Positions 8,918 to 32,000 of a stretch of 32,000 nucleotides of DNA are shown piece by piece. The DNA is taken from the NCBI GenBank assembly GCA_942493095.1, contig OW818675.1:1770001-1802000 (forward strand), in the 5' to 3' direction. Position 1 is the first letter of the stretch. Each line of letters opens with the position of its first letter. The translations under genes and the position numbers were made by a program. The notes beneath the pieces are model-generated. The model ran no database searches, had not been told where the DNA came from, and was given only the letters and a program-made list of their open reading frames with translations. Source of the DNA: Candidatus Electronema halotolerans (GTDB lineage Bacteria; Desulfobacterota; Desulfobulbia; Desulfobulbales; Desulfobulbaceae).

Positions 8918-9063
8918 TATGCCTCCTTTTTATGCTCTTTCACCATTTTTTGGCTTGCGGCAGGCGGTGAAATATGTTAAAAAAAATTTCTCTATACAAT
9001 AGAACGCAGTGTCAATACAGGCATTTGGCCTCTGATAAAAGCATTTCAGCAAAGGAGAAGAAC

Positions 9064-9561: not shown

Positions 9562-9596
9562 CTTTTTTTGTTCCAAACGTTCCTGCGTTGGAACAG

Positions 9597-9781
9597 GTGA
9601 ATTCAAGTTCCAAGTGCAACTTTTTTTGGTTGCAAGAAAAGGCAGTTGCAGGAGCACTATACTTTTATGCTCTTACTAACTGCAAGAAAATAATATAAAA
9701 ATTTACATAAGGATGTAAAACGCCATACAATTTATGCTTTTTGGATAACCAAAAAAAGTTGCACTTGCGAGTTGAATCCGC
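9597..9781. repeat. 185-bp inverted-repeat (MITE-like or structured) element
   Basis: The arms are perfect 21-bp repeats: 9611-9631 (CAAGTGCAACTTTTTTTGGTT) and 9747-9767 (AACCAAAAAAAGTTGCACTTG). An imperfect extension runs outward to about 9597 and 9781 (GAATTCAAGTTC vs GAGTTGAATCC). The internal direct repeat TGCAAGAAAA occurs at 9631-9640 and 9681-9690. Confidence 0.6.
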
Positions 9782-9814
9782 ATTTCTTGTCAAGCAACGA
9801 GCCGCCTTGTCGGC

Positions 9815-9849
9815 CTGAAAAAAAGAAAGGCGGACCATATCGGTCCGCC
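9815..9849 (-). terminator. Rho-independent terminator of the hdr operon
   Basis: On the minus strand, GGCGGACC-gatat-GGTCCGCC (9849-9829) is followed by TTTCTTTTTTT (9828-9817). It sits 29 nt after the hdrB stop. Confidence 0.75.
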
Positions 9850-9877
9850 CAAATTGGATATTAGCTGTGCAGCTGTC

Positions 9878-10762
9878 TCAGAAATGCCGCAGGATGCTGT
9901 CGCGGGGAATTTTGGAGATGGCCGCGACTTTGTGCCCTTCAAAGCCCATGCACAGAGCCAGAAGCTGATTGTAATCAAAGACCGGAATCTTATAGATATC
10001 CTTGCCCGCCTTCTTGTTCAGCTTCTCCTGAATGTTGTCCATGTACATCAGACAGGTGATGCAGGAGACCACAATGAATTCGGCCTTGGTTTCGTTGAGA
10101 ATCGCATCCAGCTTGCTCTGGGTGAAGGCATCCGCCTCTGCCGGAGAAGTCTTGGCAAAGCCGCCCGCCCCGCCGCAGCACTGATACTCCATGCTGAAGG
10201 CATCCACGGTCGCGCCCAAGGCCTCGGTCAGGCGGCGCAGGGCTACTGGTCTCCGGGGCGACTCCTCAAAACCGACCACCTCACTGGGAAAAAGGGTGTG
10301 ACAGGGATACTGAACAATCCCGTGCATCCCGGTCAGCTTCTTCTTGATCTTGGCCGCGATTTTCTCTGGCCCGACCTCATTGTACAAAACATCAATAATA
10401 TGCCTGACCTTGGTCGTGCAGTTCACCTGCCGCCCGCTCGGTTCAAGCAGCTCGTTCACTCTGGCCCGCAAGGCCTTGTCCTCATGCAGATGCTCCAACC
10501 CCATCTGCAGGGAGCTGTAGCAGGAGCCGCACTGGACCATGATGTCATGGCCCTGCTCTTCAGCCAAGGAGATGTTCCAGCCGCTGGCGGCAAAATGGGA
10601 TTCATTGTCCGTGGAAGGAAAGGCACCAAAGGCCGGGCAGCAGACATAGCCGGGCAGATCGTGAAGCGGCACGCCCAGCGCAGGCATGGTCAGCCGGATT
10701 GCGCTTTCCACGTCCGGGCGGATGGCCGGCATGTTGCAGCCGGGAAAAAAGCAGAATTCCAT
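9878..10762 (-). CDS. hdrB: Heterodisulfide reductase subunit B-like (two CCG domains)
   Basis: MEFCFFPGCNMPAIRPDVE...YVCCPAFG and ...YPCHTLF...YQCCGGAGGF are CCG-domain cysteine patterns. The start overlaps the hdrC stop by 1 nt (TAATG). Confidence 0.85.
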   Translation of the reverse strand: MEFCFFPGCNMPAIRPDVESAIRLTMPALGVPLHDLPGYVCCPAFGAFPSTDNESHFAASGWNISLAEEQGHDIMVQCGSCYSSLQMGLEHLHEDKALRARVNELLEPSGRQVNCTTKVRHIIDVLYNEVGPEKIAAKIKKKLTGMHGIVQYPCHTLFPSEVVGFEESPRRPVALRRLTEALGATVDAFSMEYQCCGGAGGFAKTSPAEADAFTQSKLDAILNETKAEFIVVSCITCLMYMDNIQEKLNKKAGKDIYKIPVFDYNQLLALCMGFEGHKVAAISKIPRDSILRHF

Positions 10763-16086: not shown

Positions 16087-18156
16087 TTATTCGATCACGA
16101 TTTCGGCAAGATCGGTAGGTGTTTTTTCGAGTATCCCATTTTTCAAAAAATATTTCTCTTCCTTCCCGTCCTCTGGGTTAAAAGAAGTAAATTTTTTCAA
16201 TTCAACTTCTTTTAATATTTTTTCGTTTGCAATTTTTTTGCAACTACAGCTTTCAGATGATTTTTCATTATTACTATCATCTTCCATGAAGGAAAAATTA
16301 AACACAGCTTCTATGCAATACTTTTCGTTTCTAGATTCTTTCTCATGCTTAATTTCGTTTATTTTGAAAAAGAAATTTTCAATTTTTAAAAAATCATCTT
16401 CTTCGTTTATAAATTTTATTTCTTTATATTTTTTAATGCGTTTAGTTTCTTCTTGGTTTCTAGTTTCAATATTAACCCTCGATAGTATTCTGCTTAACTC
16501 AAAAGTTCCATACTTATGGAATCCAGACAGTAAAATTATATCACCTTTTATGTTTTCATCGACATATCTTCCACTGCATATTATAAGGAGAGCAGCATCT
16601 CTTATCACGTTTCCTTCTCCATTTTCTTCAGGATTTCCAACATGCTGCTCTTTTTTGTCATTAATGTAAAAAATACCTGTATTTTTTACATCACTATTAT
16701 CACTTTCTATATATTTCCAATATTTACTTCTCGATTTGTATTTATGCAATGTTCTAAACTCAAATCTTTCTTTATCAGGATAAAGTTTTCTCATAAGTTG
16801 TTCGGCCGCTGGATTTATGCAGCTTGATCCAATTATGATGTAATCATCATAATGATATTTTTTATCTACAGAAAAAATTCTTTCAAGTTTTTCTTCATCA
16901 AATTTCTGACATGTTAATTCTTCATCTCCATTTTTTATATAATCAATAAGTTCAAGCATATCTAATTTGTAATGAAAAGGAATTCTCTCCTCAATAAATA
17001 AAATTTGATAAATAATTCTATTAAAAGCTGTAAAATCTTGAATACTTGTCCTGCTTCTTGTCTTTTTTCCATCTTCTTCTGGAAGGAGACAATCTACAGC
17101 ACCAATTATAAATTTTGTTTTCAGAAGCTGAAAATTTTTCCAAAAATTAAATTTTTGTTTATTTGCATCATCAATTCTTGCAACTTCGATATTTTCTATT
17201 TCAAGTTTTACTTTTAAATTTAAATCTGCTATATCGTTATATTTTATAATTCTTGCTGCTATGACATCAAAAGGAAGCCCAGCGAAATCTTTATTAGTTA
17301 AATATAAACAAGTTAAATCTTTCTGCAATTCAACATAGTTATTAACACGAAGGCCATGTATAAATCCAAGCCAGTAAAAAACCTCTGTGTTATTTTTTTC
17401 TGAAATATCAATAATACAGTATCTTGCCCTGCTTATATTGTGTATAATATTGGTAAATTTTTCTGAAGACGCAACCATTGCATCTTCAATAATATCATGT
17501 ATATCTTTGCAACTTAATTCAATCAGGTCATCGCCTGGAAAATGTAAATCTTTTATCCCTTTTCTTACTCCAAACTTATAAATTTCAGAGTAAGTTATCT
17601 GCTTGCTTTCAGATTTTTTCTTTGGGAGAATGCATATTATTGAATAAGATTTAAATCTTTCTTTACCACTGACAGATGGAATGACAAATTTAGCAGATTC
17701 AAACGAAAATATACTCTTTAAATCTCTTATTTTCGAGTAAGACCTTATGTCGCTTCTGACCGAAAGAAATTTAAGCCTTTTTTCTACTTTCTCTTTTTTT
17801 GCTAAATTTGAATTATATATAATAATAGTTTTTTTACTAAGAGCATGGGCTATTCCAATCTCGTAATATACATTTGGATTTCTTTCTGTAAGATCAGCAA
17901 TAATTAATGATGACTTGCGTATTTCTTCACATATTTTACATATCACATATTCTCCTCCTAAAAAATGCGCTTCCGTTATATTTTTACATTTCTTTTTGAT
18001 AGAAGAAAAATATTCTTTTATTCCAAATTTATAATAATCAAAATAAGGATTTTTAAAAGGCATTGCAACAAAAACTTTATCTTCATCTTCCTTTATATCT
18101 TTACTGCATGACTTTCCTGTCATGAAACATACTATTTTTTCATTACCACTCATCAC
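16087..18156 (-). CDS. 689-aa cytoplasmic protein: tandem nucleoside 2-deoxyribosyltransferase/TIR-like modules plus an uncharacterised ~350-aa C-terminal region
   Basis: This is an uninterrupted ORF in a 20-30 % G+C region (by eye), with AAGGAG RBS and no TM segment. Module 1 is VFVAMPF...SSLIIADLTERNPNVYYEIGIAHALSKKTIIIY. Module 2 is a degenerate copy, ARYCIIDISEKNNTEVFYWLGFIHGL. The domain call is by motif memory only. Confidence 0.7.
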   Translation of the reverse strand: MMSGNEKIVCFMTGKSCSKDIKEDEDKVFVAMPFKNPYFDYYKFGIKEYFSSIKKKCKNITEAHFLGGEYVICKICEEIRKSSLIIADLTERNPNVYYEIGIAHALSKKTIIIYNSNLAKKEKVEKRLKFLSVRSDIRSYSKIRDLKSIFSFESAKFVIPSVSGKERFKSYSIICILPKKKSESKQITYSEIYKFGVRKGIKDLHFPGDDLIELSCKDIHDIIEDAMVASSEKFTNIIHNISRARYCIIDISEKNNTEVFYWLGFIHGLRVNNYVELQKDLTCLYLTNKDFAGLPFDVIAARIIKYNDIADLNLKVKLEIENIEVARIDDANKQKFNFWKNFQLLKTKFIIGAVDCLLPEEDGKKTRSRTSIQDFTAFNRIIYQILFIEERIPFHYKLDMLELIDYIKNGDEELTCQKFDEEKLERIFSVDKKYHYDDYIIIGSSCINPAAEQLMRKLYPDKERFEFRTLHKYKSRSKYWKYIESDNSDVKNTGIFYINDKKEQHVGNPEENGEGNVIRDAALLIICSGRYVDENIKGDIILLSGFHKYGTFELSRILSRVNIETRNQEETKRIKKYKEIKFINEEDDFLKIENFFFKINEIKHEKESRNEKYCIEAVFNFSFMEDDSNNEKSSESCSCKKIANEKILKEVELKKFTSFNPEDGKEEKYFLKNGILEKTPTDLAEIVIE

Positions 18157-18177
18157 AGTCTCCTTTTTGCTGTAATT

Positions 18178-18582
18178 TTATAAACAAATAAAACTAATGA
18201 CAATAGACAGTGTTATAGAAAATAATATAACCCCATGAAAAGCAATTATCGTTTTTGAAGTTGTCACAGACAACCAAGAGTCTATTCTCTCTCTATCGCA
18301 AGAGATTTTCATAGAGAAATCTATTTCTTCCTCGGACATCATGCGAACATGTTCATAAATTTTTCTAAATATTCTTTCTTCATACAAAAAATATCCATCA
18401 AGCCCCCAGAAAACTAACGCTGGAAAATAAGAAATAACTAAAAACGAATATTTGCCTCCTTTTGCAAAGGCAAATATTGCAGAAATGAGAACAATGCTCC
18501 ATCCCTTCAATAAAAAGGAATTGGTGGAAAGTCTGTTAATTACTCCTTGAATCATCTGTAAATGAGCTATTTTGTTTGACAT
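18178..18582 (-). CDS. 134-aa three-TM membrane protein, first gene of the AT-rich pair
   Basis: The ATG at 18582 is preceded by AGAGGA (MSNKIAHLQMIQGVINRLSTNSFLLKGW...). Hydrophobic helices are WSIVLISAIFAFA, FLVISYFPALVFWGLDGYFL and IIAFHGVILFSITLSIVISFICL. It lies 21 nt upstream of the 689-aa gene. Confidence 0.65.
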   Translation of the reverse strand: MSNKIAHLQMIQGVINRLSTNSFLLKGWSIVLISAIFAFAKGGKYSFLVISYFPALVFWGLDGYFLYEERIFRKIYEHVRMMSEEEIDFSMKISCDRERIDSWLSVTTSKTIIAFHGVILFSITLSIVISFICL

Positions 18583-18617
18583 GCAGCTATCCTCTTTTTG
18601 TGGTTGAATATTTAACG

Positions 18618-18646
18618 ATAATACCTCATTCATTGGCACTGCTCAA
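18618..18646 (-). promoter_or_regulatory. Sigma70-like promoter for the AT-rich two-gene module
   Basis: On the minus strand, TTGAGC (18646-18641) is followed by a 17-nt spacer and TATTAT (18623-18618). This is about 35 nt upstream of the 18582 ATG. Confidence 0.35.
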
Positions 18647-18676
18647 TACCTGCTTTGTATAAAATTTTGATTCATT

Positions 18677-18811
18677 TCAAAATTTAACATCATAGAGAAA
18701 AACCGGCCATCTTCGCAACTGCAATTTTTTACCCAGTTTAACACCTCTTTCCTGCAAAGCCTGATAAATTTGGTCAGGAATTTGTAAGTTTTTGCTGGAC
18801 GATATTTTCAC
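18677..18811 (-). CDS. Possible 44-aa ORF (RHH/antitoxin-like N-terminus) or gene remnant
   Basis: The GTG at 18811 overlaps the upstream TGA (GTGA). That is the same coupling style as the three preceding genes. Product is VKISSSKNLQIPDQIYQALQERGVKLGKKLQLRRWPVFLYDVKF. It has no ATG and no clear RBS, and it is short. Confidence 0.25.
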   Translation of the reverse strand: MKISSSKNLQIPDQIYQALQERGVKLGKKLQLRRWPVFLYDVKF

Positions 18812-19311
18812 TGCATCAGCTTCTTGGGTCTGAGAAATACCGCCAAGTCAGCAGCCCCTTCAGCAAGTTCCCGCCAGAGGCATTCTTTCTTAATGACAAG
18901 CTGCACATAGCCGCAAGTGGGAATATTGTTCACTGCGCTGCCGCTGAGTTGATTGCAGAAATCTGTCAAAGCCTGATTGTGCCCGACAAGCAGCGGCTCG
19001 TGTGTCGACTCATCAAGCACTCTGCACCAATCCCAGATTGCCTTGCTCTCAAAGGTGTAAAGCTGCTCCACAGTCTGCCACTGCACCGCCGCTCCCGGCA
19101 ACCTGCTGCTGAGAAGCTCTATGGTTGCCTGCGCCCTGACCGCCGGGCTGCAAAAGACCTGCGCAAAACAGCAGCAGCCTGCCTCAGCAATATGCTGGGC
19201 CATGAAACCGCAGGTCTTCCTGCCGCGCTCATTCAGCGGCCTGTCAATATCCGCCAGCGAGGCATCCTCCCAACTTGACTTGGCATGACGCAGCAGATGA
19301 ATTTTCTTCAT
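18808..19311 (-). CDS. Histidine phosphatase superfamily protein (SixA/PGAM branch)
   Basis: MKKIHLLRHAKSSWEDASLADIDRPLNERGRK carries the RHG-type motif, and ...LLVGHNQALTDF carries the second catalytic His. The ATG at 19311 overlaps the upstream stop (ATGA), so I prefer it to the track start at 19359. Confidence 0.75.
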   Translation of the reverse strand: MKKIHLLRHAKSSWEDASLADIDRPLNERGRKTCGFMAQHIAEAGCCCFAQVFCSPAVRAQATIELLSSRLPGAAVQWQTVEQLYTFESKAIWDWCRVLDESTHEPLLVGHNQALTDFCNQLSGSAVNNIPTCGYVQLVIKKECLWRELAEGAADLAVFLRPKKLMQ

Positions 19312-19652
19312 GAATGCACTTTTTCCTCCTCCAGTCCTTGGCTGGTGCGCACAAACCAAGGCCGGGCAACTGCGTCAATATGAGCACGGAGCGGCGGATA
19401 TTTGATGCTGGCATAACTTTGCACATCTACTGAAAAAGGCAGGCAGCTTTCCTGAAACAAAGTCCAAAGACGGTCACATACTGCCTCATCAGCACTACCA
19501 TAGAGCACCAAATCCAGATCAGAATTATGTCGCTGGCGGCCCTGCGCACGTGAACCGAACACCGCCACCTGTTCAATGCGATCTTTCGCTGTAAGCAGAA
19601 TCTCCCGAACCAGTGCCCGCTGTGCCTTATTCAGACCAAAAGCATCGCTCAT
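19308..19652 (-). CDS. Minimal nucleotidyltransferase (MNT) of a HEPN/MNT module
   Basis: VAVFGSRAQGRQRHNSDLDLVLYG is the Pol-beta-fold GS...DxD motif. It has an ATGA overlap with the HEPN gene. Confidence 0.8.
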   Translation of the reverse strand: MSDAFGLNKAQRALVREILLTAKDRIEQVAVFGSRAQGRQRHNSDLDLVLYGSADEAVCDRLWTLFQESCLPFSVDVQSYASIKYPPLRAHIDAVARPWFVRTSQGLEEEKVHS

Positions 19653-20074
19653 AGCTCGCCTACTTCAATGCGCCGCACCAGCAAAAACTCGTGCAATTCA
19701 GTAAAGGCTGCCAGATAACTGCTGCGAATATCAGCAATCACCCGTTCAAAGGTCTCAAAGCTGTAGGTGTGCGACATGCGATTGCGGGCATCCAAGGCGT
19801 TCTGCCATGCCTCGCCCTGCTGGATGATGCCTGCCTCGAATGCTTGACGGATTACCGTGCGCGGCGTGATCTGGTTAAACACCACATTCTCGCTTTCCAG
19901 ATAATCCTTCAAGGTTTTCCAAGCAAGCTCCATCGTGTATTCAAACCGCTGAATCACGCCTTCCTTTTCTAATTGCGTCAACGGCTTTTCTTGTTCAACT
20001 GCCTCGCGCAGCAACGTGAAAGCGCGGCTGTAATTGTCAAATCGATACTGCCAGCGAGGAGTCGGGTCGGTCAT
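19649..20074 (-). CDS. HI0074-family nucleotidyltransferase substrate-binding (HEPN) protein
   Basis: RWQYRFDNYSRAFTLLREAVE...IQRFEYTMELAWKTLKDYL...ARNRMSHTY contains the Rx4H HEPN motif. The start is uncertain: ATG at 20074, or TTG at 20101 as in the ORF track. Confidence 0.8.
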   Translation of the reverse strand: MTDPTPRWQYRFDNYSRAFTLLREAVEQEKPLTQLEKEGVIQRFEYTMELAWKTLKDYLESENVVFNQITPRTVIRQAFEAGIIQQGEAWQNALDARNRMSHTYSFETFERVIADIRSSYLAAFTELHEFLLVRRIEVGEL

Positions 20075-20108
20075 GGAATCTGCTAAATTTAAATGTTTCA
20101 AAAGGTAT

Positions 20109-20852
20109 TTAATATTCAGTTGTCTCAGGAGAGTGCGAAGATAAAGTTGGCAATTCTAAATTTTTTGGTTTCATTCCAGCCACATGTAAGGCAATCTGCG
20201 CCTTTACTACGCTACGAATCTTAACATCTTCAATAGAAGCTACAACTGTTTCCGCACGTTCCAACTGTCGGTCATTTCGTAACCTATCATATAATTCAGT
20301 TGCTCTTTGCCGTGTCTGTTCTGCTTGTTTAAAGAAAAGAAATGCAACTGCATCAATTACTGCGCCAGGCAGTATTTTTATATATTCAACAAAATTTTTA
20401 TGATCAATACCAAGAGAAAAAAACAGTATCAATGCAAAACCAATTGTTGCAGCAGTTACACTAAACCAAAACTGAAACTTTGCCTGCGAAAGTGCTTGGC
20501 TATGATAATTATTTACTAATTTTTCTGCAAAACCGTTATTCTCGTCTGCTAATTGATGTATATGGATACCTCCATGCACTCTCAAACTACTTTGAAATTT
20601 TTTTTCAAATTCTTTAATATCGAGACCGTCAGGTAGTTTTTTGGCAATTTCCTCCAGTGCTCGTAATTTGGCCTCTTCTGTTTGTAAAAATGCTGTTTTT
20701 GCAATTTTACTTATATTTTCTTTTTCTAAATTATCTTCCTTGGATTTCTTTTTCGCCAAAAAAGATAAAATGAATCCGGCAATTATGGATAAAATCCCTA
20801 ATAATAGACCTGAAGACAAACCTGATACTACTACTATTTCGTCTATTGACAT
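20109..20852 (-). CDS. 247-aa membrane protein: N-terminal TM, charged coiled-coil, C-terminal 2-TM hairpin plus helical tail
   Basis: It is AT-rich. TM1 is VVVSGLSSGLLLGILSIIAGFILSFL. A K/E-rich helix follows. The hairpin reads QAKFQFWFSVTAATIGFALILFFSLGI...ILPGAVIDAVAFLFFKQAEQTRQRATELYDRL. I recall a similar pattern in SLATT and TRADD-N-associated 2-TM modules (low certainty). Confidence 0.65.
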   Translation of the reverse strand: MSIDEIVVVSGLSSGLLLGILSIIAGFILSFLAKKKSKEDNLEKENISKIAKTAFLQTEEAKLRALEEIAKKLPDGLDIKEFEKKFQSSLRVHGGIHIHQLADENNGFAEKLVNNYHSQALSQAKFQFWFSVTAATIGFALILFFSLGIDHKNFVEYIKILPGAVIDAVAFLFFKQAEQTRQRATELYDRLRNDRQLERAETVVASIEDVKIRSVVKAQIALHVAGMKPKNLELPTLSSHSPETTEY

Positions 20853-23131: not shown

Positions 23132-23971
23132 TCAGGCAGTCAGCCTGCTGAAGCCCAGACTGAGCAGATAGACAGCCGTGGCCAGCAGGATGATTACGGA
23201 GCCACTGGGCAGGTTGAGGTAAAAGCTTACCCCCAGCCCGACCGTGATGCAGACCGCGCAGACTGCAGTGGCCAGCAGCATCATCTGGCGGATGCTGGCG
23301 GCAAAGCTGCCTGCAATCGCCGCTGGCAGGGTCAGCAGGGCAATGACCATGATGATGCCGACAATCCGAATCAGGAGGACAATGGTCAGAGCGGTAAGGC
23401 AGAGCAGGAGCAGATGCAGCCACTGGGTGCGCACCCCGCGAAGCTGGGCATATTCCTCGTCAAAGCAGAGGGCGAGCAGCTTGTTGTAAAAGATGACGAC
23501 CACGGCCAGAATCACTGCGTCCAGCCCGGCGACAAAATAAATATCCTGCCTGCTGATCAGGAGGATGTTGCCGAACAGATAGGACATCGGGTCAAAATAG
23601 CCCGGTGTTTTGGCGATGAAGAGATAGCCGAGCGACATGCCGCCCGCCCAGAGCGCGCCGATGATCGAGTCTTCCCGCTGCCCGGCATGGCGGCTGACCT
23701 GGGCGAGAATCACCGCTGAAAGCAGGGCCACGATCACTGCTCCGTGCATGGGCGTGAACCAGGAAATTCCTGTCACAGTTTGCAGATACAGGCCTAAACC
23801 GATGCCTGCCAGAATGCAGTGGGAGATGGCCCCGGCCAAGTAGCTGATCCGCCGCACCACGACAAAGGTGCCGATAATGCCAAAGGAAATTGAGGAGAGC
23901 AGGCCGACCAGCAGGCCGTAGCGGAGAAAGGGCAGGTCAGGGTCGGTCAGGGCGGCAAGCAGCTCAGTCAT
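23132..23971 (-). CDS. znuB: Zinc/manganese ABC transporter permease
   Basis: It is a multi-TM ABC-3 family pattern (LLVGLLSSISFGIIGTFVVVRRISYLAGAISHCILAGIGLG...). It overlaps znuC by 8 nt. Confidence 0.85.
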   Translation of the reverse strand: MTELLAALTDPDLPFLRYGLLVGLLSSISFGIIGTFVVVRRISYLAGAISHCILAGIGLGLYLQTVTGISWFTPMHGAVIVALLSAVILAQVSRHAGQREDSIIGALWAGGMSLGYLFIAKTPGYFDPMSYLFGNILLISRQDIYFVAGLDAVILAVVVIFYNKLLALCFDEEYAQLRGVRTQWLHLLLLCLTALTIVLLIRIVGIIMVIALLTLPAAIAGSFAASIRQMMLLATAVCAVCITVGLGVSFYLNLPSGSVIILLATAVYLLSLGFSRLTA

Positions 23972-24722
23972 GTTCGTGGCCCTCAGGGCAGCAGCGGTGG
24001 TCGTGCCGGATCATGCGCAGCTCGCCGCCGTACATCTCTTGGATCAGCTCACCGGTCAGCTCGCTGGTCGGATGGACATAGACCTTGTTGTTGACGCAGA
24101 TAATCCGCTTGAAAAAAGTTGAGGAAAAGCCGACTTCGTGCGTCACCATCAGAACAATCATCTTCTGGTTCAGCTCGGCCAGCAGGGTGAGAAGCTGCTG
24201 CTCAGACTCGCGGTCCAAGCTGGCAGTGGGTTCATCAAGAATGAGGATGTCGCCGCCCGAAGCCAAGGCGCGGGCAATCAGCACCCGCTGCCGCTGCCCG
24301 CCGGACAGGGCGGCAAAGGGCCGCTTGGCCAAGTCAGCCAGCCGCACTGAGGCCAGCGCATCAAGGGACAGCTGCCTGTCTTCCTTGCTGTATCTGCCGC
24401 TGAAGCTGCGGCCAAGCCGGGCCATGCAGACCACGTCCAAGGCTGAGATGGGAAAGCAGGCATCGTAACGGGCATATTGGGGCACATAGCCGATCCGGGT
24501 CCGTGCCTCTGCCGGTGCTCGGCCAAAAACGCGGATGCTGCCGCTGCTCGGACTGAGCAGGCCGAGAATCAGCTTGACCAGCGTGGTCTTGCCGCCGCCA
24601 TTCGGCCCGACAATGCAGGCTGAATCCAAAGGCCAGACCGTCAGGCAGACATCAGTCAGCACCGGCATGTCGCTGCTGTAGGCAAAGCTGAGGCCCTCTA
24701 TTTCGATGGCCGCTTCTTTCAC
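23964..24722 (-). CDS. znuC: Zinc ABC transporter ATP-binding protein
   Basis: Walker A is GPNGGGKTT, signature is LSGGQRQRVLIARAL, and Walker B is ILILDEP. GTG at 24722 forms a GTGA overlap with the upstream Uma2 stop and gives the usual ~250-aa length. The track start at 24815 would overlap Uma2 by about 100 nt. Confidence 0.85.
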   Translation of the reverse strand: MKEAAIEIEGLSFAYSSDMPVLTDVCLTVWPLDSACIVGPNGGGKTTLVKLILGLLSPSSGSIRVFGRAPAEARTRIGYVPQYARYDACFPISALDVVCMARLGRSFSGRYSKEDRQLSLDALASVRLADLAKRPFAALSGGQRQRVLIARALASGGDILILDEPTASLDRESEQQLLTLLAELNQKMIVLMVTHEVGFSSTFFKRIICVNNKVYVHPTSELTGELIQEMYGGELRMIRHDHRCCPEGHEHD

Positions 24723-25195
24723 AACTGAATCTGCGGCGGAAAATCCGGCACCAAAGACGAGGCTGGCTGCTCGCCCCGTGCCGTGAAGAAGCGCAGCCCG
24801 CCCTGTTCCGAGCAAATCCAGACTTCCTTGGCCCCCTGTTCAAAGTAGAGCTTTCGTTTCTCCCGCATCTCCTCGTCCGTGTTGCTGGCCGAAACAACCT
24901 CAATGCAGATTTCCGGGCAGACAGAGCAGGCGGCCTCATGCTTGATCTTGGCAAAGATTGCGTCAGAGACCCAGACCACATCCGCCACCCGCACCCCTTT
25001 GCCTGTTTGAATGGCGCATTCCGGCAGGGTCTTGCCTGTGCGCAGCAGCGTGCGAAGGAGAAATTCCACTTCCCCCTGCAAGGCGGCATGATAAATTTTC
25101 ACCGGAGTCATGAGCACCTTTCCCTCTTCATTCAGCTCGATTTTGAACGGCAAATCTTGCAGACTTGGATGTTCGCACACTTCCTGCCAGTTCAT
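24719..25195 (-). CDS. Uma2 (DUF820) family putative endonuclease
   Basis: LPFKIELNEEGKVLMTP...ADVVWVS...PEICIEVVSASNTDEEMREKRKLYFEQGAKEVWICS is the PD-(D/E)xK-type Uma2 pattern. GGTGA RBS lies upstream. Confidence 0.75.
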   Translation of the reverse strand: MNWQEVCEHPSLQDLPFKIELNEEGKVLMTPVKIYHAALQGEVEFLLRTLLRTGKTLPECAIQTGKGVRVADVVWVSDAIFAKIKHEAACSVCPEICIEVVSASNTDEEMREKRKLYFEQGAKEVWICSEQGGLRFFTARGEQPASSLVPDFPPQIQL

Positions 25196-25209
25196 GGTTC
25201 ACCTTCAGT

Positions 25210-26076
25210 TCAATTGCCGCCCAAGGCCGAGCTGATCTGTTCGGCCATGAGGCGCAGGTTTTCCGGCACATTTTCCGCCAAGGGATCAAGCGCAGCTGCC
25301 TTGCCGCCAATGGCTTGGGCAATGGTCTCCGCGTTTTTACGATCAAACTGCGGCTGAACAAAGATCACCTTGACTTTTTCTTTTTTTGCCTTGGCGATCA
25401 GGGCGTAAAGCTGTCTGGGCGCAGGCGATTTTCCTTCGATTTCCACCGCCTCCTGGCGCAGGCCGTAAGCATGGGCAAAATAGCCGAAGGCCGGGTGGAA
25501 GACGAGAAAGCTCTGGCCCTTGAACGGAGCCAGCTTCTTGCTGATTGCTTCATGCAACGCCCGCAGCTCTTTTGAGACCGCTTGCAGATTCTCCTGATAC
25601 ACAGCCGCATTGGCCGGGTCAGCGGCTGCCAAGGCCTCTGCCATGACAGCCGCCATTTTTTGCAGATTCTGCGGATCAAGCCAGACATGCGGATCAAGGC
25701 CGCCGTGCTCATGCTCGTGGTCATGATCCGCATGGTCGGTCATGGGAATTTTCCTGATGCCAGCCGCAGTGTTCACAATCTGCACATTGCTTTCAGCCTG
25801 TTCCACTTTGGCTAACAGGCCGCGCTCAAACTCCAGGCCAATGGCAAAATAGAGCCGGGCGCGAAACAGGGCAGTGACCTGCTCCGGGGTCGGCTCCATG
25901 CCGTGCGGCTCCTGGCCTTTGTCCAACAGAGCAGTGACATGAACCCTGTCACCGCCGACCTGCTCGGCCAGCCATTTCTGCGGCAGGATGGAGACTAACA
26001 CAGGCAGAGGTTCAGCACAGGCCGCAGGCGCGGCCAGCATGGTGAGCAGAAAAACGGCAAACAGTTTTTGGAGCAT
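25210..26076 (-). CDS. znuA: Zinc ABC transporter substrate-binding protein with His-rich loop
   Basis: The ATG at 26076 has a GGAGG RBS. Signal peptide is MLQKLFAVFLLTMLAAPAACA. The His-rich loop MTDHADHDHEHEHGGLDPHVW is typical of Zn-specific cluster-9 SBPs. Confidence 0.85.
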   Translation of the reverse strand: MLQKLFAVFLLTMLAAPAACAEPLPVLVSILPQKWLAEQVGGDRVHVTALLDKGQEPHGMEPTPEQVTALFRARLYFAIGLEFERGLLAKVEQAESNVQIVNTAAGIRKIPMTDHADHDHEHEHGGLDPHVWLDPQNLQKMAAVMAEALAAADPANAAVYQENLQAVSKELRALHEAISKKLAPFKGQSFLVFHPAFGYFAHAYGLRQEAVEIEGKSPAPRQLYALIAKAKKEKVKVIFVQPQFDRKNAETIAQAIGGKAAALDPLAENVPENLRLMAEQISSALGGN

Positions 26077-26105
26077 TTTTTCCTCCGGCGTTCTTGGTGC
26101 AAGTT

Positions 26106-26145
26106 TGTTTACAGATTTTGTACAGAAATTGCCAACAACTTGCAA
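26106..26145 (-). promoter_or_regulatory. Putative znuA promoter with overlapping TGTACA/TGTAAACA operator-like repeat
   Basis: On the minus strand, TTGCAA (26145-26140) is followed by 17 nt and TACAAA (26122-26117). TGTACAAAATCTGTAAACA (26124-26106) overlaps the -10 and could be a Zur-type site. It does not match any consensus I can recall exactly. Confidence 0.3.
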
Positions 26146-26159
26146 CCATTACTTTCCCG

Positions 26160-28313
26160 TCAGCCCGCCTCTTTGGGCAAGGTGATGGCAAAAATCACCC
26201 CGGTTCTGCCGTCTTCCAGATTGCGGACACTGACCCGGCCTCCGTGATGTTCCATGATGGTGCGGACTATGTACAGCCCCAGTCCCATGTGCGGGCGGTC
26301 GTCCTTGACAGGCCGGGTCGAGACCATGGAGTTGAAAATCTGCTGCTGCAAGACCGGGTCAATTGGCGGCCCTTGATTGATGACCTGCAAGGAGACAGTG
26401 TCAGCCTGCTGCTCCAGCCGCAGCTCAACCGGCGTTTCCGGGGCATGAAAAGAAACCGCGTTTTCGACTAATTTGTCAAGGGCCTGATGCAGGCGGACTG
26501 GATCGCCCTTGACCAGCACCTCCTGCTCTGGTGGCTGATAGACAAATTTTGTCTCGCTGAAGGTGAGCTGCCAGCCGTGCTCCAGCCACACAGACACAGC
26601 CCGGCCCAGATCAACTGGCTCCATGCTGTCCAAGAGCAGGGCGTTCTTGAGACTGGCCGCCTCGCGAATCGAAGTCAGCAGGCTTTCCAAACGTTCCACG
26701 TCCCGCTCGGCCCAGCGGATGTATTCTGTGACCTGCTTGCTGGGACTCTCCTGCTGCCGCATCTGCTCCTGCTTGAGATTTTTCAGCGAGGCCGCCACCC
26801 CGGCCAGCGGCGTGCGCATCTCGTGCTCCAGATTGTCAGCCATTTTCTCCCGGTGCTCAATCTGCTGGCGGAGCTGGTCCAGCATCGAGTCCAAGGTCCG
26901 GCCCAAATCGCCGATTTCGTCCCCGGACCGGTCTGCTTTGACCTCGCTGCGGATATGGCCGTCCGGCGTGATGGCTGAGGCGGCCTGATTGCGAAGCCGC
27001 CGGATCCTGTTTGAGAGCCGGAAGGCGAAGAGGAAGAAGATGCCGCCGCCAAAGAAAAAGGCCAGCACTGACAGGGATATGGTCTCTTCAATCATCCGGT
27101 TGCTCAGGGCAAGGATGGAGTTGGTGGTCTGCTCCACCACCACAGCGGCCAGCACCTTGTCGCCTTCATAGACCGGCACAATGGCAGCCAAAACTTCCAC
27201 CTGATCATCTTTGTTGAGAAAATAGCTTGTCAGAGAATGGCGGCCAGCCAAGCCCTCCCGGATGCCTTTCAAATCCAACTCAGTGGGCTGCGAGACCTGC
27301 TCCTCAATATCAGCATTGAAGGAGGTGGTGAAAAAGCGGTACAATGGATGGAGCAGCTCGCTGGCCCGCCGCATGAGCCGGGCCAGGGCATCCGCATCCG
27401 CAGGCAGCGGCTCCTGTTTGCGCAGACTGCCGACTTGGGCGCGGATGCGCTTGTTCTGATCAACGACCCGGATGCGGGCGTAGGGCCGGTCCAAGGAGCG
27501 GAGTATCTCCTCAATCGGCTCTGAGGTGCCCAGCAGCCAGCCCGGCTCATGGTTCTCAGCCAGATTGGCGGTGCCGATCATGGCCTGCACGTCCCGCTTG
27601 TCCTCATCATCCACATCAGCGACCAGAAAGGCTAATTTGCTGCCCAGCAGCTCCAGCGGGATGCGCAGCTCCAGAATGTAGCCAGTCCGGGTCTGCCGCC
27701 ACGCTCCTTGAATGCGCTGCTCGCTGACTGGAAATTTGATCGGATTGCTGGGCATGAGAAAGCCGTTGACCCAGCCCGGCTCATGCGGGGCGACCAGATA
27801 AGTGCGCTGGCCGAAATTATCTTCAATGACAATCTGAAGATGATCAGAGCGGTCAAGGCGGAGGGAGGTGCGGCTGCGGTAAATGACGTGATCATCCTGC
27901 ACATCAAAAAAGGCGTACAAGTACTTGTCCTGCTTGCCTGCCAAATGACGGAAGCTGAGGGTCAGCGGCCCTGCCGGATCCGCCTTGCTGATCAGATGCT
28001 CTTTGCCGAACTGCTCGGCCAAGGTCAGCTCCGGCTGCCAGTCCTCCAAGCTGCCGTCCAATTTGATGCTGTTGGAGAGCTGGAACAGGTAGAGATCACG
28101 ATGCTGATCAAGGGCGTGAAACTGCTCCCGGTCAAAGAGGTCGCTCCGGTTGGTCAGGGCGGCGGACACTGCTTGGGCGGTGAAATTGAGCGTGTCCCGC
28201 TGGCTGACGATCAGGCTGTCTTTCAGAGTGCGGTTCAGCCGCATGCCCAGCAGCGGGAAAAGCAGGAGCAGCAGTGAGAGCAGAACGAGCTTGAACCGGA
28301 GAGAGCAGCGCAT
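26160..28313 (-). CDS. Sensor histidine kinase with large (~400 aa) extracytoplasmic domain, HAMP, HisKA, HATPase_c
   Basis: N-terminal TM is FKLVLLSLLLLLFPLL. The long periplasmic region contains DGSLEDW (like a CBM9/DOMON-type carbohydrate-binding fold). The second TM is LSVLAFFFGGGIFFLFAF. H-box is NLEHEMRTPLAGV. The C-terminus reads GLGLYIVRTIMEHHGGRVSV. Confidence 0.8.
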   Translation of the reverse strand: MRCSLRFKLVLLSLLLLLFPLLGMRLNRTLKDSLIVSQRDTLNFTAQAVSAALTNRSDLFDREQFHALDQHRDLYLFQLSNSIKLDGSLEDWQPELTLAEQFGKEHLISKADPAGPLTLSFRHLAGKQDKYLYAFFDVQDDHVIYRSRTSLRLDRSDHLQIVIEDNFGQRTYLVAPHEPGWVNGFLMPSNPIKFPVSEQRIQGAWRQTRTGYILELRIPLELLGSKLAFLVADVDDEDKRDVQAMIGTANLAENHEPGWLLGTSEPIEEILRSLDRPYARIRVVDQNKRIRAQVGSLRKQEPLPADADALARLMRRASELLHPLYRFFTTSFNADIEEQVSQPTELDLKGIREGLAGRHSLTSYFLNKDDQVEVLAAIVPVYEGDKVLAAVVVEQTTNSILALSNRMIEETISLSVLAFFFGGGIFFLFAFRLSNRIRRLRNQAASAITPDGHIRSEVKADRSGDEIGDLGRTLDSMLDQLRQQIEHREKMADNLEHEMRTPLAGVAASLKNLKQEQMRQQESPSKQVTEYIRWAERDVERLESLLTSIREAASLKNALLLDSMEPVDLGRAVSVWLEHGWQLTFSETKFVYQPPEQEVLVKGDPVRLHQALDKLVENAVSFHAPETPVELRLEQQADTVSLQVINQGPPIDPVLQQQIFNSMVSTRPVKDDRPHMGLGLYIVRTIMEHHGGRVSVRNLEDGRTGVIFAITLPKEAG

Positions 28314-28466
28314 GGTCAGCAGGCAAAGATGAAAAAAGGTTGCTGAAAAAATCTGGAACTGCTTGATATATACTGTGCTGCTGCTAAGGTGTAAACACGC
28401 ATCTGCGCAAGGAGGCGGCCGGCAGGGCCGGGCCGGAACTGATCACTATCAACAACGAGGCATGAA

Positions 28467-29168
28467 ATGGCAAAAGATTGGAGCCATACAGGAGAACGGA
28501 TTGTCAACTCTTCGGCTGATTTTATCAGCGGAGTCGGTTCCGCCTTCAAAGGGGTGGGCAACCGCTTCAAGCGCAGCAAGTTTGCGCCCTTTGTCGAGGC
28601 GCTGTGCGCAGTGGTCGGCGATGTGGCCTCGCAGAATGGCCGCCTGCAAAAACAGGAGATCGAGGAGTTCCGAAAATTTTTATTGCAAAATTGCCGCGAC
28701 ACTCCTATGTTGGAACTGTTCAGCTTGGACGAGCTGGCCAAGAAATTGGAGCAGTATGCGGTGGCGGCTTTTCTCTGCGATGACGAGGCCGTGCTCATGG
28801 CGGTCAAGAAAATTGAGGATCCTGAGCTGGCCCGGCTGATCATTCTGTCCGCCTTGGCAGTTGCAGCGGCTGACGGCGACTGCGATGCCAAGGAGCGGGC
28901 CTGCATTGAACAGCACGCAGCCACGCTGCAAGTCAACATGGCTGCGCTGGCTGATCAGTTTCAGCTCAATCTCAACAAACCGCAGAACATTCCCTCGACC
29001 ACGTCAGCTCCGCCGCAGCTGCCGCCAGCACCAAGTCCAAGTCCGACGCATGGACAGCAGCCCTCCCCTGCTCCTGCCGCAGATGATCTCTGCCTGATGT
29101 GCAAGGGCGCGGGCGGCAGCTGCGTGTTCTGCAAAGGCACGGGCAGAAGGCTTGACCGCAGGAATTGA
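28467..29168 (+). CDS. TerB-domain protein with Pro-rich linker and C-terminal DnaJ-type CxxCxGxG x2 zinc knuckle
   Basis: TerB-like paired helices are FVEALCAVVGDVASQNGRLQKQEIEEFRKFL and LIILSALAVAAADGDCDAKERACIEQHAATL. The linker is PPQLPPAPSPSPTHGQQPSPAPA. The tail is DDLCLMCKGAGGSCVFCKGTGRRLDRRN. GAGG RBS lies upstream. Confidence 0.75.
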   Translation: MAKDWSHTGERIVNSSADFISGVGSAFKGVGNRFKRSKFAPFVEALCAVVGDVASQNGRLQKQEIEEFRKFLLQNCRDTPMLELFSLDELAKKLEQYAVAAFLCDDEAVLMAVKKIEDPELARLIILSALAVAAADGDCDAKERACIEQHAATLQVNMAALADQFQLNLNKPQNIPSTTSAPPQLPPAPSPSPTHGQQPSPAPAADDLCLMCKGAGGSCVFCKGTGRRLDRRN

Positions 29169-29797
29169 ACATTCAACTCATTCACTGAAACAGGAGAGCA
29201 AGATGGGCGTTTCATTAAGCAAAGGCGGCAATGTTTCTTTGAGCAAAGAGGCTCCGGGCTTGGAGGCCATCAAGATCGGCTGCGGCTGGGATGCGCAGGC
29301 CCTGAAAGGCGCGGCCTTTGACCTTGATGCCTCCGTGTTTCTCTGCGGCGCGGACGGCAAAGTCACCAAAGAGAACGACTTTATTTATTACAACAACTTG
29401 CAGGGCGCGAACGGCGCAGTGGTTCATGCTGGCGACAACCGCACCGGCGAAGGAGAGGGCGACGATGAAATGATCATGATGTCGCTCAAGGACATGCCGC
29501 CGGAACTGGTCAAAGCCGCTGTTGCGGTCACCATTCATGAGGCGGACAGCCGGGGTCAGAACTTCGGCATGGTGGAAAACGCCTTCATCCGCATTGTCAA
29601 TGCGGCCAATGATGTCGAGATTGCCCGCTACGACCTGACAGAGGATTTTTCCAGCGAGACAGCGGTGATTTTCGGCGAGGTCTATCAGAAAAACGGTGAA
29701 TGGAAATTCAAGGCGGTCGGGCAAGGCTCAAACGAGGGCTTGGCTCATATCTGCGCCAAGTTCGGCGTGAACGCGTCCTGAGTGTCGTTTTTTTCAG
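29071..29797 (+). repeat. Direct repeat copy A (linker end + zinc knuckle + intergenic + terD)
   Basis: It aligns base-for-base at a constant offset of 1581 nt with 30652-31378. Only scattered substitutions and no indels were seen by eye. Confidence 0.85.
29203..29781 (+). CDS. terD: TerD-family protein, copy 1
   Basis: MGVSLSKGGNVSLSKEAPGL...FDLDASVFLC...DFIYYNNL...GDNRTGEGEGDDEMIMMSL shows TerD Ca-binding motifs. The ATG at 29203 has AGGAGA RBS. The track start at 29152 is a non-ATG extension overlapping the upstream gene. Confidence 0.9.
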   Translation: MGVSLSKGGNVSLSKEAPGLEAIKIGCGWDAQALKGAAFDLDASVFLCGADGKVTKENDFIYYNNLQGANGAVVHAGDNRTGEGEGDDEMIMMSLKDMPPELVKAAVAVTIHEADSRGQNFGMVENAFIRIVNAANDVEIARYDLTEDFSSETAVIFGEVYQKNGEWKFKAVGQGSNEGLAHICAKFGVNAS

Positions 29798-29810
29798 GAG
29801 GAGAAACAGT

Positions 29811-30749
29811 ATGGCTGTGAAGCTGAGAAAACAGGAGGAGGTGGCGGCCAGAACCATTGATCTCCGTAAAAAAGTTTCGTTAGCCAAAGAGCGGGCCGGG
29901 CTGCTGGCTCAAGCGGCGCAGGTTGAGTTTGTCCTCGATATTTCCGGCTCTTTTGCAGGACGTTATCGCGACAACACCATTCAGGACATTGTTGAGCGGC
30001 TGGCTCCGATTGCCTTGGAATTTGATGCTGACGGCGCCATGCCAGTCACCCTTTTTGGCGTGGATGCGCATGAGGCGCCGCCAATCACCCAAGCCAACCT
30101 TTGCGAATACGTCAACCGCGAAGTTGTCAAGCACTATCCTTTTGAGGGCGGAACTAAGTATGCCAAGCCGCTCTGGCATATTGTCCAACGGCATTGCAGT
30201 GCGGCAGTTCAAGAGGTGACGGTTGCGCAGGGCGGCTGGTTCAAAAAGAAGAAAACCGAGAGGAAAATTGTCCAGCAGTCTCCTGCCCCTGTTCCTATTT
30301 TTGTCCAATTCATAACTGACGGCGACAATCAGGACCGTGAAGAGACAGAGAAGCTGCTGCGCATGATGGAGGTGCTGCCGATCTTCATCCAGTTTGTCGG
30401 CGCAGGAACAGCTTCTTTTGCCTTTCTCCGCAAACTTGACGAGATGCGACGGGACTTCATCGACAATGCCAGTTTTTTTCAAGTGACAGATATCGTCAAC
30501 ACCTCTGATGAGCAGCTTTACAAAGACATGCTGCATGAATTTCCTGCTTGGCTGAATAAGGCCAAAGACAAGGGACTGGTCCATCAGCACAACATCAACA
30601 AACCGAGCAGTCCTCCGCCAAGTTCGGCAGGAGCAGCCCCGCAGCAGACTCCTCCTGCCGCAGATGATCTCTGCCTGATGTGCAAGGGCGCGGGCGGCAG
30701 CTGCATGTTCTGCAAAGGCACGGGCAGAAGGCTTGACCGCAGGAACTGA
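29811..30749 (+). CDS. vWA (TerF-C-terminal-like) protein with Pro-rich linker and the same C-terminal CxxCxGxG x2 zinc knuckle
   Basis: FVLDISGSFAGRY (MIDAS DxSxS)...LEFDADGAMPVTLFG...EGGTKYAKP...IFVQFITDGDN...PIFIQFVGAG...FLRKLDEM...DNASFFQV...LYKDMLHEFPAWL fits the vWA-TerF-like family. The tail is DDLCLMCKGAGGSCMFCKGTGRRLDRRN. The ATG at 29811 has GGAGGAGA RBS. Confidence 0.8.
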   Translation: MAVKLRKQEEVAARTIDLRKKVSLAKERAGLLAQAAQVEFVLDISGSFAGRYRDNTIQDIVERLAPIALEFDADGAMPVTLFGVDAHEAPPITQANLCEYVNREVVKHYPFEGGTKYAKPLWHIVQRHCSAAVQEVTVAQGGWFKKKKTERKIVQQSPAPVPIFVQFITDGDNQDREETEKLLRMMEVLPIFIQFVGAGTASFAFLRKLDEMRRDFIDNASFFQVTDIVNTSDEQLYKDMLHEFPAWLNKAKDKGLVHQHNINKPSSPPPSSAGAAPQQTPPAADDLCLMCKGAGGSCMFCKGTGRRLDRRN

Positions 30750-31378
30750 ACATTCAACTCATTCACTGGAAAAGGAGAGCAAGATGAGCGTTTCATTAAG
30801 CAAAGGCAGCAATGTTTCTTTGAGCAAAGAGGCTCCGGGCTTGGAGGCCATCAAGATCGGCTGCGGCTGGGATGCGCAGGCCCTGAGCGGCGCGGCCTTT
30901 GACCTTGATGCCTCCGTGTTTCTTTGCGGCGAGGACGGCAAAGTCACCAAAGAGAACGACTTTATTTATTACAAGAACTTGCAGGGCGCGAACGGCGCAG
31001 TGGTTCATGCTGGCGACAGCCGCACCGGCGAGGGCGATGGCGACGACGAAATGATCATGATGTCGCTCAAGGACATGCCGCCGGAACTGGTCAAAGCCGC
31101 TGTTGTGGTCACCATTCACGAGGCGGTCAGCCGAGGCCAGAACTTCGGCATGGTGGAAAACGCCTTCATCCGCATTGTCAATGCGGCCAATGATGTGGAG
31201 ATTGCCCGCTACGATCTGACAGAGGATTTTTCCGGGGAAACCGCTGTAATTTTCGGCGAGGTCTATTCAAAAAACGGTGAATGGAAATTCAAGGCGGTCG
31301 GCCAAGGCTCAACCGAGGGGCTGGCCCAGATATGCGCCAAGTTCGGCGTGAGCGCGTCCTGAGCGTCGTTTCTTTCAA
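30652..31378 (+). repeat. Direct repeat copy B (linker end + zinc knuckle + intergenic + terD)
   Basis: See copy A. Similarity begins at CTCCTGCCGCAGATGATCTCTGCCTGATGTGCAAGGGC and decays about 15 nt after the terD stop. Confidence 0.85.
30784..31362 (+). CDS. terD: TerD-family protein, copy 2
   Basis: It differs from copy 1 at 14 of 192 residues by my count. The RBS context is the same (AGGAGA). Confidence 0.9.
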   Translation: MSVSLSKGSNVSLSKEAPGLEAIKIGCGWDAQALSGAAFDLDASVFLCGEDGKVTKENDFIYYKNLQGANGAVVHAGDSRTGEGDGDDEMIMMSLKDMPPELVKAAVVVTIHEAVSRGQNFGMVENAFIRIVNAANDVEIARYDLTEDFSGETAVIFGEVYSKNGEWKFKAVGQGSTEGLAQICAKFGVSAS

Positions 31379-31394: not shown

Positions 31395-31426
31395 GGCAGG
31401 GAGGCAGTGCCCTGCCTATTTTTTTG
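31395..31426 (+). terminator. Rho-independent terminator after terD copy 2
   Basis: GGCAGGG (31395-31401), an 8-nt loop and CCCTGCC (31410-31416) are followed by TATTTTTTT. Confidence 0.7.
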
Positions 31427-31614: not shown

Positions 31615-32000
31615 ATGAAAGAAGCAGGAAAACAGGTGTGCCGGAGCTTGCTGACCGGCATGGTGCTGCTGGCGGGACTGACGTTTTTGTTAGTGTCGTC
31701 AAGCTACGCATCGGTGCCGCCAGCAGAGCAGTTTGGCAAAATTGCGACAGTGGAACACATACTGCACCAAACGCAATCCAGCATTTGGCAGCAGCTCCAT
31801 TCACAGGAGGTAGATGCTCTTGTGTCGCAACTGCGTATGGCTGAAAAGGCGGGCCGTGATGATCAGGCCGGACAGCTACGGCGGCAGTTGAATCAGTTGG
31901 AGAAACGTCTGCTGGGCGATGCGCCCCCGGCAGATGCTGAACTGGCCCGGCTGGTGCAGAAGAAAAAAATGCTGCTTGATGAACTGGCCCGACTGGGCGG
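31615..32000 (+). CDS. Secreted coiled-coil protein, 3' end outside the window
   Basis: The ATG at 31615 follows AGAGGTGG. Product begins MKEAGKQVCRSLLTGMVLLAGLTFLLVSSSYA/SVPP (signal peptide), then turns heptad-like (QLRMAEKAGRDDQAGQLRRQLNQLEKRLLG...). The frame stays open to the window end. It is not in the ORF track because it has no stop. Confidence 0.5.
   Translation, partial: MKEAGKQVCRSLLTGMVLLAGLTFLLVSSSYASVPPAEQFGKIATVEHILHQTQSSIWQQLHSQEVDALVSQLRMAEKAGRDDQAGQLRRQLNQLEKRLLGDAPPADAELARLVQKKKMLLDELARLG

Follow-up and report, generated by a model that had tools for sequence, protein, structure and literature searches.

A Cys4 knuckle tail on TerB and vWA proteins, and duplication of a tail-TerD unit, in a Ter-type locus of Candidatus Electronema halotolerans

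A Ter-type locus with tailed TerB and vWA proteins

Stress-response neighbourhoods of the Ter type, in which TerB, TerD paralogues and a TerF-type vWA protein occur with PRTase/HAD modules, were reportedly delineated by Anantharaman, Iyer & Aravind in 2012. A summary from the Aravind laboratory ascribes the role of ligand- or metal-binding sensor to TerB and TerD, the formation of sub-membrane structures to the vWA protein TerF and signal biosynthesis to the PRTase/HAD components (PMC7824862). The assembly of Ter proteins and the way in which they signal are still largely inferred from genome context. Here we describe a locus of this type in Candidatus Electronema halotolerans, a cable bacterium represented by a closed, circular metagenome-assembled genome (MAG; PMC10030654). 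It occupies positions 28467-31362 of a 32,000 nt stretch of that genome (contig OW818675.1, positions 1,770,001 to 1,802,000), referred to below as the window. One tightly packed operon on the + strand encodes, in this order, a TerB protein, a TerD protein, a TerF-like vWA protein and a second TerD protein, and both the TerB and the vWA protein end in a small tail with four cysteines (Cys4) arranged in two CxxCxGxG motifs. The locus is a cable-bacterial version of the TerB/TerD/vWA Ter-type module in which TerF is split. The Ter system itself is known; what is new here is the unannotated domain architecture of the tailed proteins, together with a lineage-specific, in-frame duplication.

The likeness to the described Ter neighbourhoods lies in the presence of TerB, TerD and vWA-TerF-like proteins in a single operon, whose four genes are separated by gaps of 34, 29 and 34 nt (open reading frame (ORF) listing and Pfam) and correspond, in identity and coordinates, to those of an initial annotation made from the sequence alone. 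The first gene (28467-29168, +, 233 aa; product 100% identical to Candidatus Electronema halotolerans GCAAIG_07935) matches Pfam TerB over residues 45-161 (E 8.4e-9; 36.2 bits against a cut-off of 24.4), and the top PDB fold matches to an AlphaFold2 (AF2) model of the whole protein are the TerB-like entries 2h5n and 2ou3. Both TerD copies are recognized by Pfam, copy 1 (29203-29781, +, 192 aa) over its full length at E 4.4e-78 and copy 2 (30784-31362, +, 192 aa) at E 2.1e-76. Their motifs, GDNRTGEGEGDDE and GDSRTGEGDGDDE respectively, we take to be the acidic Ca2+-binding loops of TerD, going by the consensus reportedly described with the Klebsiella TerD structure. The vWA gene (29811-30749, +, 312 aa from the ATG of MAVKLRK) matches the Pfam vWA-TerF-like model at residues 36-257 (E 8.5e-51), and its product carries a metal-ion-dependent adhesion site (MIDAS), with DISGS (DxSxS) and TDGDN both present in the sequence.

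The locus differs from the described neighbourhoods in several respects. TerF proteins join an N-terminal TerD and a vWA domain in one polypeptide, whereas TerD1 and vWA are separate genes in the window, 29 nt apart; fusions in the order TerD(N)-vWA(C) are nevertheless many among the vWA homologues (P0090, P0092 and P0094 among them). No Pfam match to TerC, TerA, TerZ, a Ser/Thr kinase or a phosphatase was obtained among some 25 large ORFs covering the 28 kb upstream, in agreement with the initial annotation, which had seen none of TerC, TerA, TerZ, a kinase or a phosphatase in the cluster; TerE and TelA are likewise absent from the scanned window ORFs, and in Electronema sp. KV no TerC gene was found within 8 kb of the locus on either side. 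Finally, the window TerB and vWA proteins carry a C-terminal Cys4 knuckle for which there is no curated model, and the knuckle-TerD unit is duplicated in this genome.

Two further systems invite comparison. The TerY-P triad consists of a vWA protein, a PP2C phosphatase and a Ser/Thr kinase with a C-terminal zinc ribbon (PMC11090510). The window shares with it a Ter-type vWA system in which a component ends in a small zinc module, but its cluster encodes neither a PP2C phosphatase nor a Ser/Thr kinase, its vWA protein is of the TerF type, and the predicted zinc module is borne by TerB and vWA rather than by a kinase. DjlA is composed of a membrane anchor, a TerB-like domain and a J domain. The tailed TerB resembles it in that a linker joins the TerB-like domain to an element of the DnaJ-type machinery, and differs in lacking both transmembrane anchor and J domain and in having a zinc knuckle appended; the NCBIfam DjlA model matches it at E 1.6e-4, with 21 bits against a cut-off of 162.

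The tail itself follows a Pro/Ser-rich linker in both carriers and reads AADDLCLMCKGAGGSC(V/M)FCKGTGRRLDRRN, as the initial annotation had described it. On TerB it spans 29076-29165 (+), with the cysteine motif CLMCKGAGGSCVFCKG at 29091-29138 and a basic C-terminus, TGRRLDRRN, after it; on vWA it spans 30657-30746 (+), with the motif CLMCKGAGGSCMFCKG at 30672-30719. The TerB protein is thus built of an N-terminal Gly-rich helix (residues 1-35), the TerB helical domain (45-161), the linker (approximately 166-203) and the Cys4 knuckle (204-233). In an AF2 model based on an alignment of 34 sequences the TerB core has a predicted local distance difference test score (pLDDT) of about 90, the linker falls below 50 at residues 170-203 and is disordered, and the tail is compact at about 84, with some 18 ordered residues; a model of the tail by itself gives the knuckle a pLDDT of 84-91. 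Across 34 homologues, at 38-89% identity, no variation is seen at the tail residues C, C, G, C, F, C and K, so that the conserved CxxCxGxG module proposed in the initial annotation is borne out in all four cysteines and in the Gly, Phe and Lys. Six-frame translation of the window and 20 related loci places the CxxCxG...CxxCxG motif almost exclusively at these C-termini, the sole other match being in a 71-residue minus-strand ORF of one related locus (L005), where the sequence is different and the motif is not C-terminal. Spacing and flanking residues vary among homologous tails while the four cysteines are retained; one more classical TerB (P0308) also has the knuckle, a stand-alone protein (P0353) has three knuckles in tandem, and three proteins (P0032, P0033 and P0275) have a different Cys-rich end.

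The resemblance to the cysteine-rich (CR) domain of DnaJ (PF00684; 1EXK) is one of motif. The CxxCxGxG motif is identical, and 1EXK, the CR domain of Escherichia coli DnaJ, is the best PDB match to the tail profile (E 0.008), with DNAJA3 (2CTT) and anti-TRAP (3LCZ) also retrieved. A DnaJ CR domain has four repeats and two zinc centres, however, whereas the tail has only two repeats, separated by 0-7 residues, and can therefore form at most one Cys4 zinc site; its carriers have neither the J domain nor the C-terminal substrate-binding domains. The tail is thus DnaJ-type in motif and not a DnaJ CR domain. Anti-TRAP and the small stand-alone DnaJ-like knuckle proteins (PF15777, PF17302/DUF5351) are also small Cys4 CxxCxGxG modules for protein-protein contact, although in the window TerB and vWA carry the knuckle as a tethered tail and the matches to Anti-TRAP remain sub-threshold (E 0.14-0.6). 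No Pfam or NCBIfam model reaches threshold on the tail: the window tail gives no Pfam match at all, one homologous tail (P0029) matches DnaJ_CXXCXGXG at E 0.026 with 15.2 bits against a cut-off of 32.7, and homologous tails give weak Pfam matches to DUF5351 and to Anti-TRAP. A 49-aa tail profile retrieves many stand-alone proteins of 40-86 aa with DnaJ_CXXCXGXG-type, Anti-TRAP or DUF5351 Pfam domains, and among the matches listed these short knuckle proteins are the only kind, with no other carrier architecture; a fold search with the tail alone gave just non-significant matches to UvrA zinc modules. Membership in a single-knuckle class with one Zn2+ is a tentative assignment: the motif is invariant and the AF2 knuckle confident, the sequence matches are weak and the fold matches non-significant. 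The suggestion that such a tail had not been described on Ter proteins is consistent with the absence of any annotating Pfam or NCBIfam model. Full-text literature searches on TerB with CXXCXGXG, or on cable bacteria and tellurite, returned nothing relevant; the 2012 Ter survey lay outside their scope, and a prior mention there is possible.

The N-terminal segment of the tailed TerB (window 28467-28571, residues 1-35) is also strongly conserved and Gly-rich, with W5, G9, V13, N14, D18, F19, G22, G24, A26, F27, G29, G31 and R33-R36 standing out. It is common to the tail-bearing proteins and to TerB-TerD fusions and is annotated by no model; AF2 renders it as a helix at low confidence, and it may be an amphipathic or membrane-contact helix.

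Duplication of the tail-TerD unit

The linker, tail, spacer and TerD gene form a direct DNA repeat of approximately 0.8 kb, and the two couplets of the operon are thus paralogous copies of one unit. Copy 1 extends over 28961-29796 (+), including about 15 nt beyond TerD, and begins within the TerB gene where ...ADQF is followed by QLNLNKP; copy 2 extends over 30584-31377 (+) and continues the vWA reading frame at the 3' end of that gene, where ...KDKGLV is followed by HQHNINKP. About 730 nt align well, at approximately 95% identity, while the linkers have diverged by insertions and deletions. The vWA orthologue of Electronema sp. KV ends ...AKAKGLLR-stop, exactly at the window junction, and the vWA orthologues of Electronema sp. 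KV, E. aureum and E. nielsenii (F5), at 255-258 aa, are all without a tail. The two-couplet layout is a lineage-specific segmental duplication, with the second copy fused in frame to the 3' end of vWA, and the vWA-knuckle fusion is a clean case of domain accretion by this means. The initial annotation had proposed two couplets of a non-canonical Ter module, in effect a distinct class; the tail-less state of the nearest vWA orthologues does not sustain this, and rules out the two-couplet layout as the ancestral architecture. Its description of the tail as portable fares better, the repeat and its junction indicating that the tail was copied from TerB onto vWA. The simplest course would be a tandem duplication spanning the TerB linker to the vWA 3' end, after which the distal vWA copy would have been lost.

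A tail is present on 2 of 121 vWA-TerF-like homologues, namely the window protein and one that is 79% identical (P0041) on an independent metagenome contig (L003, JGI Ga0316588_1008540). The contig has the same vWA-tail junction as the window, which suggests a single ancestral duplication. A metagenome scan for further vWA-tail loci recovered only L003 again and a contig that ends inside vWA. At the end of L003 (2074-2110), the vWA-tail stop is followed by 10 nt and then by 27 nt that exactly match a stretch inside the contig's own TerD gene (position 924).

TerD1 and TerD2 are 93.8% identical in nucleotides and 92.7% in amino acids, with a synonymous divergence (dS) of 0.17 and a ratio of non-synonymous to synonymous divergence (dN/dS) of 0.22. 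From the L003 TerD each window copy is separated by a dS of about 0.30, and from the KV TerD by about 1.3; between orthologues dN/dS is 0.02-0.06, below the paralogue value. The window tails, compared over the 31-residue AADD...RRN stretch and the stop codon, show two differences, of which one is non-synonymous (V>M) and the other synonymous. The TerB-borne and vWA-borne knuckles of L003 have 9 synonymous and 0 non-synonymous differences, and the linker and tail taken together (53 codons) have 13 synonymous differences and one non-synonymous codon; the 9:0 pattern argues that the vWA-borne knuckle has been kept by selection. As judged from these substitution patterns, both TerD copies and the vWA-borne knuckle are under purifying selection. 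The window copies are more alike than those of L003, which suggests later homogenization in the window lineage, although we do not press this point because in the window the tail and spacer (4 differences in 135) are not significantly more similar than TerD (36 in 579); on the same figures a gene-conversion gradient inside the repeat was rejected.

The TerB-tail family and its neighbourhoods

TerB with a CxxCxGxG tail forms a conserved but rare subfamily, present in all cable-bacterial loci examined and in a few other lineages. When 1.84 billion cluster representatives were searched exhaustively with a profile, only 14 clusters matched at E<1e-30, rising to 21 with a limit of E<1e-10, by which measure the family is rare but dispersed. 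Among the homologues and neighbourhoods collected here, of which the initial annotation had proposed a census, the TerB tail is rare and nearly always adjacent to TerD, with the vWA tail restricted to the two proteins noted above.

The cable-bacterial loci were drawn from a GTDB genome scan that returned seven cable-bacterial genomes other than that of the window, and in 7/7 species the tailed TerB is followed directly by TerD. The Electronema species have a tail-less vWA gene in addition; the Electrothrix species have no vWA gene. Immediately downstream, and convergent with the operon, lie HAD, (HAD,) StiP and PRTase_2 genes in three of the relatives (Electronema sp. KV, Electrothrix YB6 and E. 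aarhusensis), with an OmpR-type response regulator in KV as well; the adjacent PRTase_2, StiP and two HAD genes of cable-bacterial relatives are a further likeness to the described Ter neighbourhoods. The window extends only 640 nt beyond TerD2, and within it there is no PRTase, HAD, StiP or OmpR-type regulator gene. The compact, TerC-independent complex envisaged in the initial annotation is accordingly not established, because relatives have HAD, HAD, StiP, PRTase_2 and response-regulator genes immediately next door. Downstream of the window operon (31616-32000, +), an ORF starting MKEAGKQVCRSLLTGMVLLAGLTFLLVSSSYASVPP, signal-peptide-like, runs off the end of the window and has no counterpart in related Ter loci, so that downstream synteny is broken in this genome.

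Beyond the cable bacteria, Patescibacteria-like contigs carry the tailed TerB with three TerD genes and PRTase_3, one of them also with a Na/Ca exchanger and vWA, so that PRTase_3 and multiple TerD genes provide a further likeness to Ter neighbourhoods. A 54.7 kb contig (L013, Logan SRR31654895) has vWA, TerB-tail and TerD genes among Thy1, a 5'-3' exonuclease, small unannotated ORFs and leucine-rich repeat (LRR) proteins, and may be a phage or symbiont-like genome with a tail-bearing TerB; on one further contig TerD is one gene away. In total, TerD is adjacent to or near the tailed TerB in 5 of 6 independent lineages. In three homologues (P0035, P0038 and P0040) TerB and TerD are fused, TerB(N)-TerD(C), and TerD stands in the place of the tail. 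Genes for Na_Ca_ex proteins lie beside TerB-tail clusters in two unrelated lineages (L011 15010-16146 and L014 2132-3277), which fits a calcium link for TerD-containing modules.

Upstream of the window operon, the divergently transcribed sensor kinase remarked upon in the initial annotation is a 717-aa histidine kinase (26160-28313, -) with a periplasmic CBM9-like region and HAMP, HisKA and HATPase_c domains (Pfam). Electronema spp. and Electrothrix YB6 have orthologues 71-87% identical to it, likewise placed divergently from the Ter genes. The 153 nt between the kinase and TerB genes (28314-28466) presumably hold the promoters for both the kinase and the Ter operon, and searches of this interval for promoter motifs gave weak sigma-70-like matches only. 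The terminator said to follow the second TerD is present as an intrinsic-terminator-like hairpin, GGCAGGG-N8-CCCTGCC (7 bp, 6 of them GC), with the T-run TATTTTTTTG after it (31395-31426, +). On the far side of the kinase (23132-26145, -) and 15 nt past it come znuA, whose product has a His-rich loop, then a gene of Uma2 endonuclease type, and then znuC and znuB; this zinc/manganese uptake operon may share a transcript with the kinase gene opposite the Ter operon.

Further upstream is an island of 28-35% GC (16087-20852, -) in a genome of approximately 58% GC, with other low-GC patches covering 1001-2000 and 9001-10000. Of the proteins encoded in the island, one of 153 aa matches PDC-M50A, a candidate defence family in PADLOC (E 8e-45), one of 689 aa has no Pfam match but resembles TIR effectors weakly (E 3e-4), and another carries a CyanoTRADDas_TM domain. 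The region is probably a defence island acquired horizontally. The window Ter proteins have no match in PADLOC, and membership of the Ter operon in a PADLOC defence system was dropped.

Possible roles of the knuckle

On balance we lean towards a reading of the knuckle as a tethered zinc docking peg for TerD, or for a partner common to TerB and vWA, transferred to the latter when the unit was duplicated. The knuckle is predicted to bind one Zn2+ and, on its disordered Pro-rich tether, would tie its carrier to TerD or to the common partner; after the duplication, vWA would dock in the same way as TerB, with a second TerD at hand. The assembly would then be a Ca2+/metal- or ligand-sensing complex, as has been proposed for Ter systems, and in relatives it would adjoin the conserved histidine kinase and the PRTase/StiP/HAD module. 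Docking is favoured because TerD is adjacent or near in most of the independent lineages, because a fused TerD replaces the tail in some homologues, and because a disordered tether with a tiny folded module is a typical recruitment device. The gene order TerB>TerD>vWA also mirrors both kinds of fusion, TerB(N)-TerD(C) and TerD(N)-vWA(C), with TerD in the middle. Several points tell on the other side. Co-duplication of tail and TerD is expected from their adjacency in the DNA and is thus not independent evidence of a functional link, and the route of tandem duplication and deletion is simply the most parsimonious path. The L014/L015 lineage has a Na/Ca exchanger, HAD, the tailed TerB and vWA, with no TerD within 4-7 kb. 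L003 ends 37 nt past the vWA-tail stop, where either the second TerD is truncated or the repeat has broken the contig, and from this contig end the pairing of each tail with a TerD of its own may be unconserved.

Other roles for the knuckle can be weighed against the same observations. It is doubtful, in our estimation, that the knuckle is a dedicated Ter adaptor, similar to effector-associated domains, that plugs TerB and vWA into the TerD scaffold of a soluble, TerC-less sensing complex. Tellurite, to which Ter systems have been linked, attacks thiols, and the four invariant cysteines could accordingly be viewed as a zinc-thiolate redox or soft-metal switch like those of Hsp33 and RsrA, in which zinc would be lost on exposure to oxidants, tellurite-like oxyanions or thiophilic metals and the state of TerB and vWA would change; the znuA-znuC-znuB genes that follow the kinase on the same strand would suit such a switch, but they do not adjoin the kinase in Electronema sp. 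KV, knuckles of the CxxCxGxG kind generally have a structural zinc site, and the replacement of the tail by TerD in homologues fits tethering better than sensing, and we consider the switch quite unlikely. The residues that end the protein beyond the knuckle are basic throughout (RRLDRRN, GRK, GKRK, VKQKG, QKQK), which raises the prospect of a target other than TerD, whether nucleic acid, an anionic membrane lipid or, by the parallel with DjlA, the DnaK system. The DjlA match of the TerB part, weak and far below its cut-off, the TerD-free context of L014 and the C-terminal zinc ribbons of TerY-P kinases, which are suspected nucleic-acid binders (PMC11090510), all lean in this direction; there is, however, no J domain or DnaK gene nearby, the cluster has no DNA-processing genes, and the tail, with its few ordered residues, is very small, so that a target of this kind seems unlikely.

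The remaining alternatives deny the vWA tail a function or the repeat its reality. The vWA-tail fusion and TerD2 might be neutral by-products of a recent duplication, without added function, as could be argued from the confinement of the fusion to one shallow lineage, from copies that are still 94-96% identical and from a paralogue dN/dS above that of orthologues. The ratio is nevertheless well under 1, neither reading frame is disrupted in either of two lineages whose vWA proteins are some 21% apart, and the 9:0 synonymous pattern of the L003 knuckles disfavours neutrality, which we regard as very unlikely. That the repeat arose in assembly would be a concern for any MAG (PMC10030654), but about 6% of positions are not shared between the copies, whose linkers also differ by insertions and deletions, the genome is reported as closed and circular (PMC10030654), and the independent JGI contig has the same vWA-tail junction; chance or artefact was rejected on account of the diverged copies and the independently seen fusion, and an assembly origin is improbable in the extreme.

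In summary, the scope of these observations is narrow, since the family is rare and a single shallow lineage accounts for the vWA fusion, but they offer a testable handle on the contacts between TerB, TerD and vWA, in the form of a portable knuckle, fusions with TerD in place of the knuckle, and a copy transplanted onto vWA. If the knuckle were indeed a dedicated adaptor, it would define a previously unrecognized TerB/TerD/vWA complex, and the duplication in Candidatus Electronema halotolerans would be a natural experiment in which the adaptor has been moved to a new carrier along with a spare TerD.

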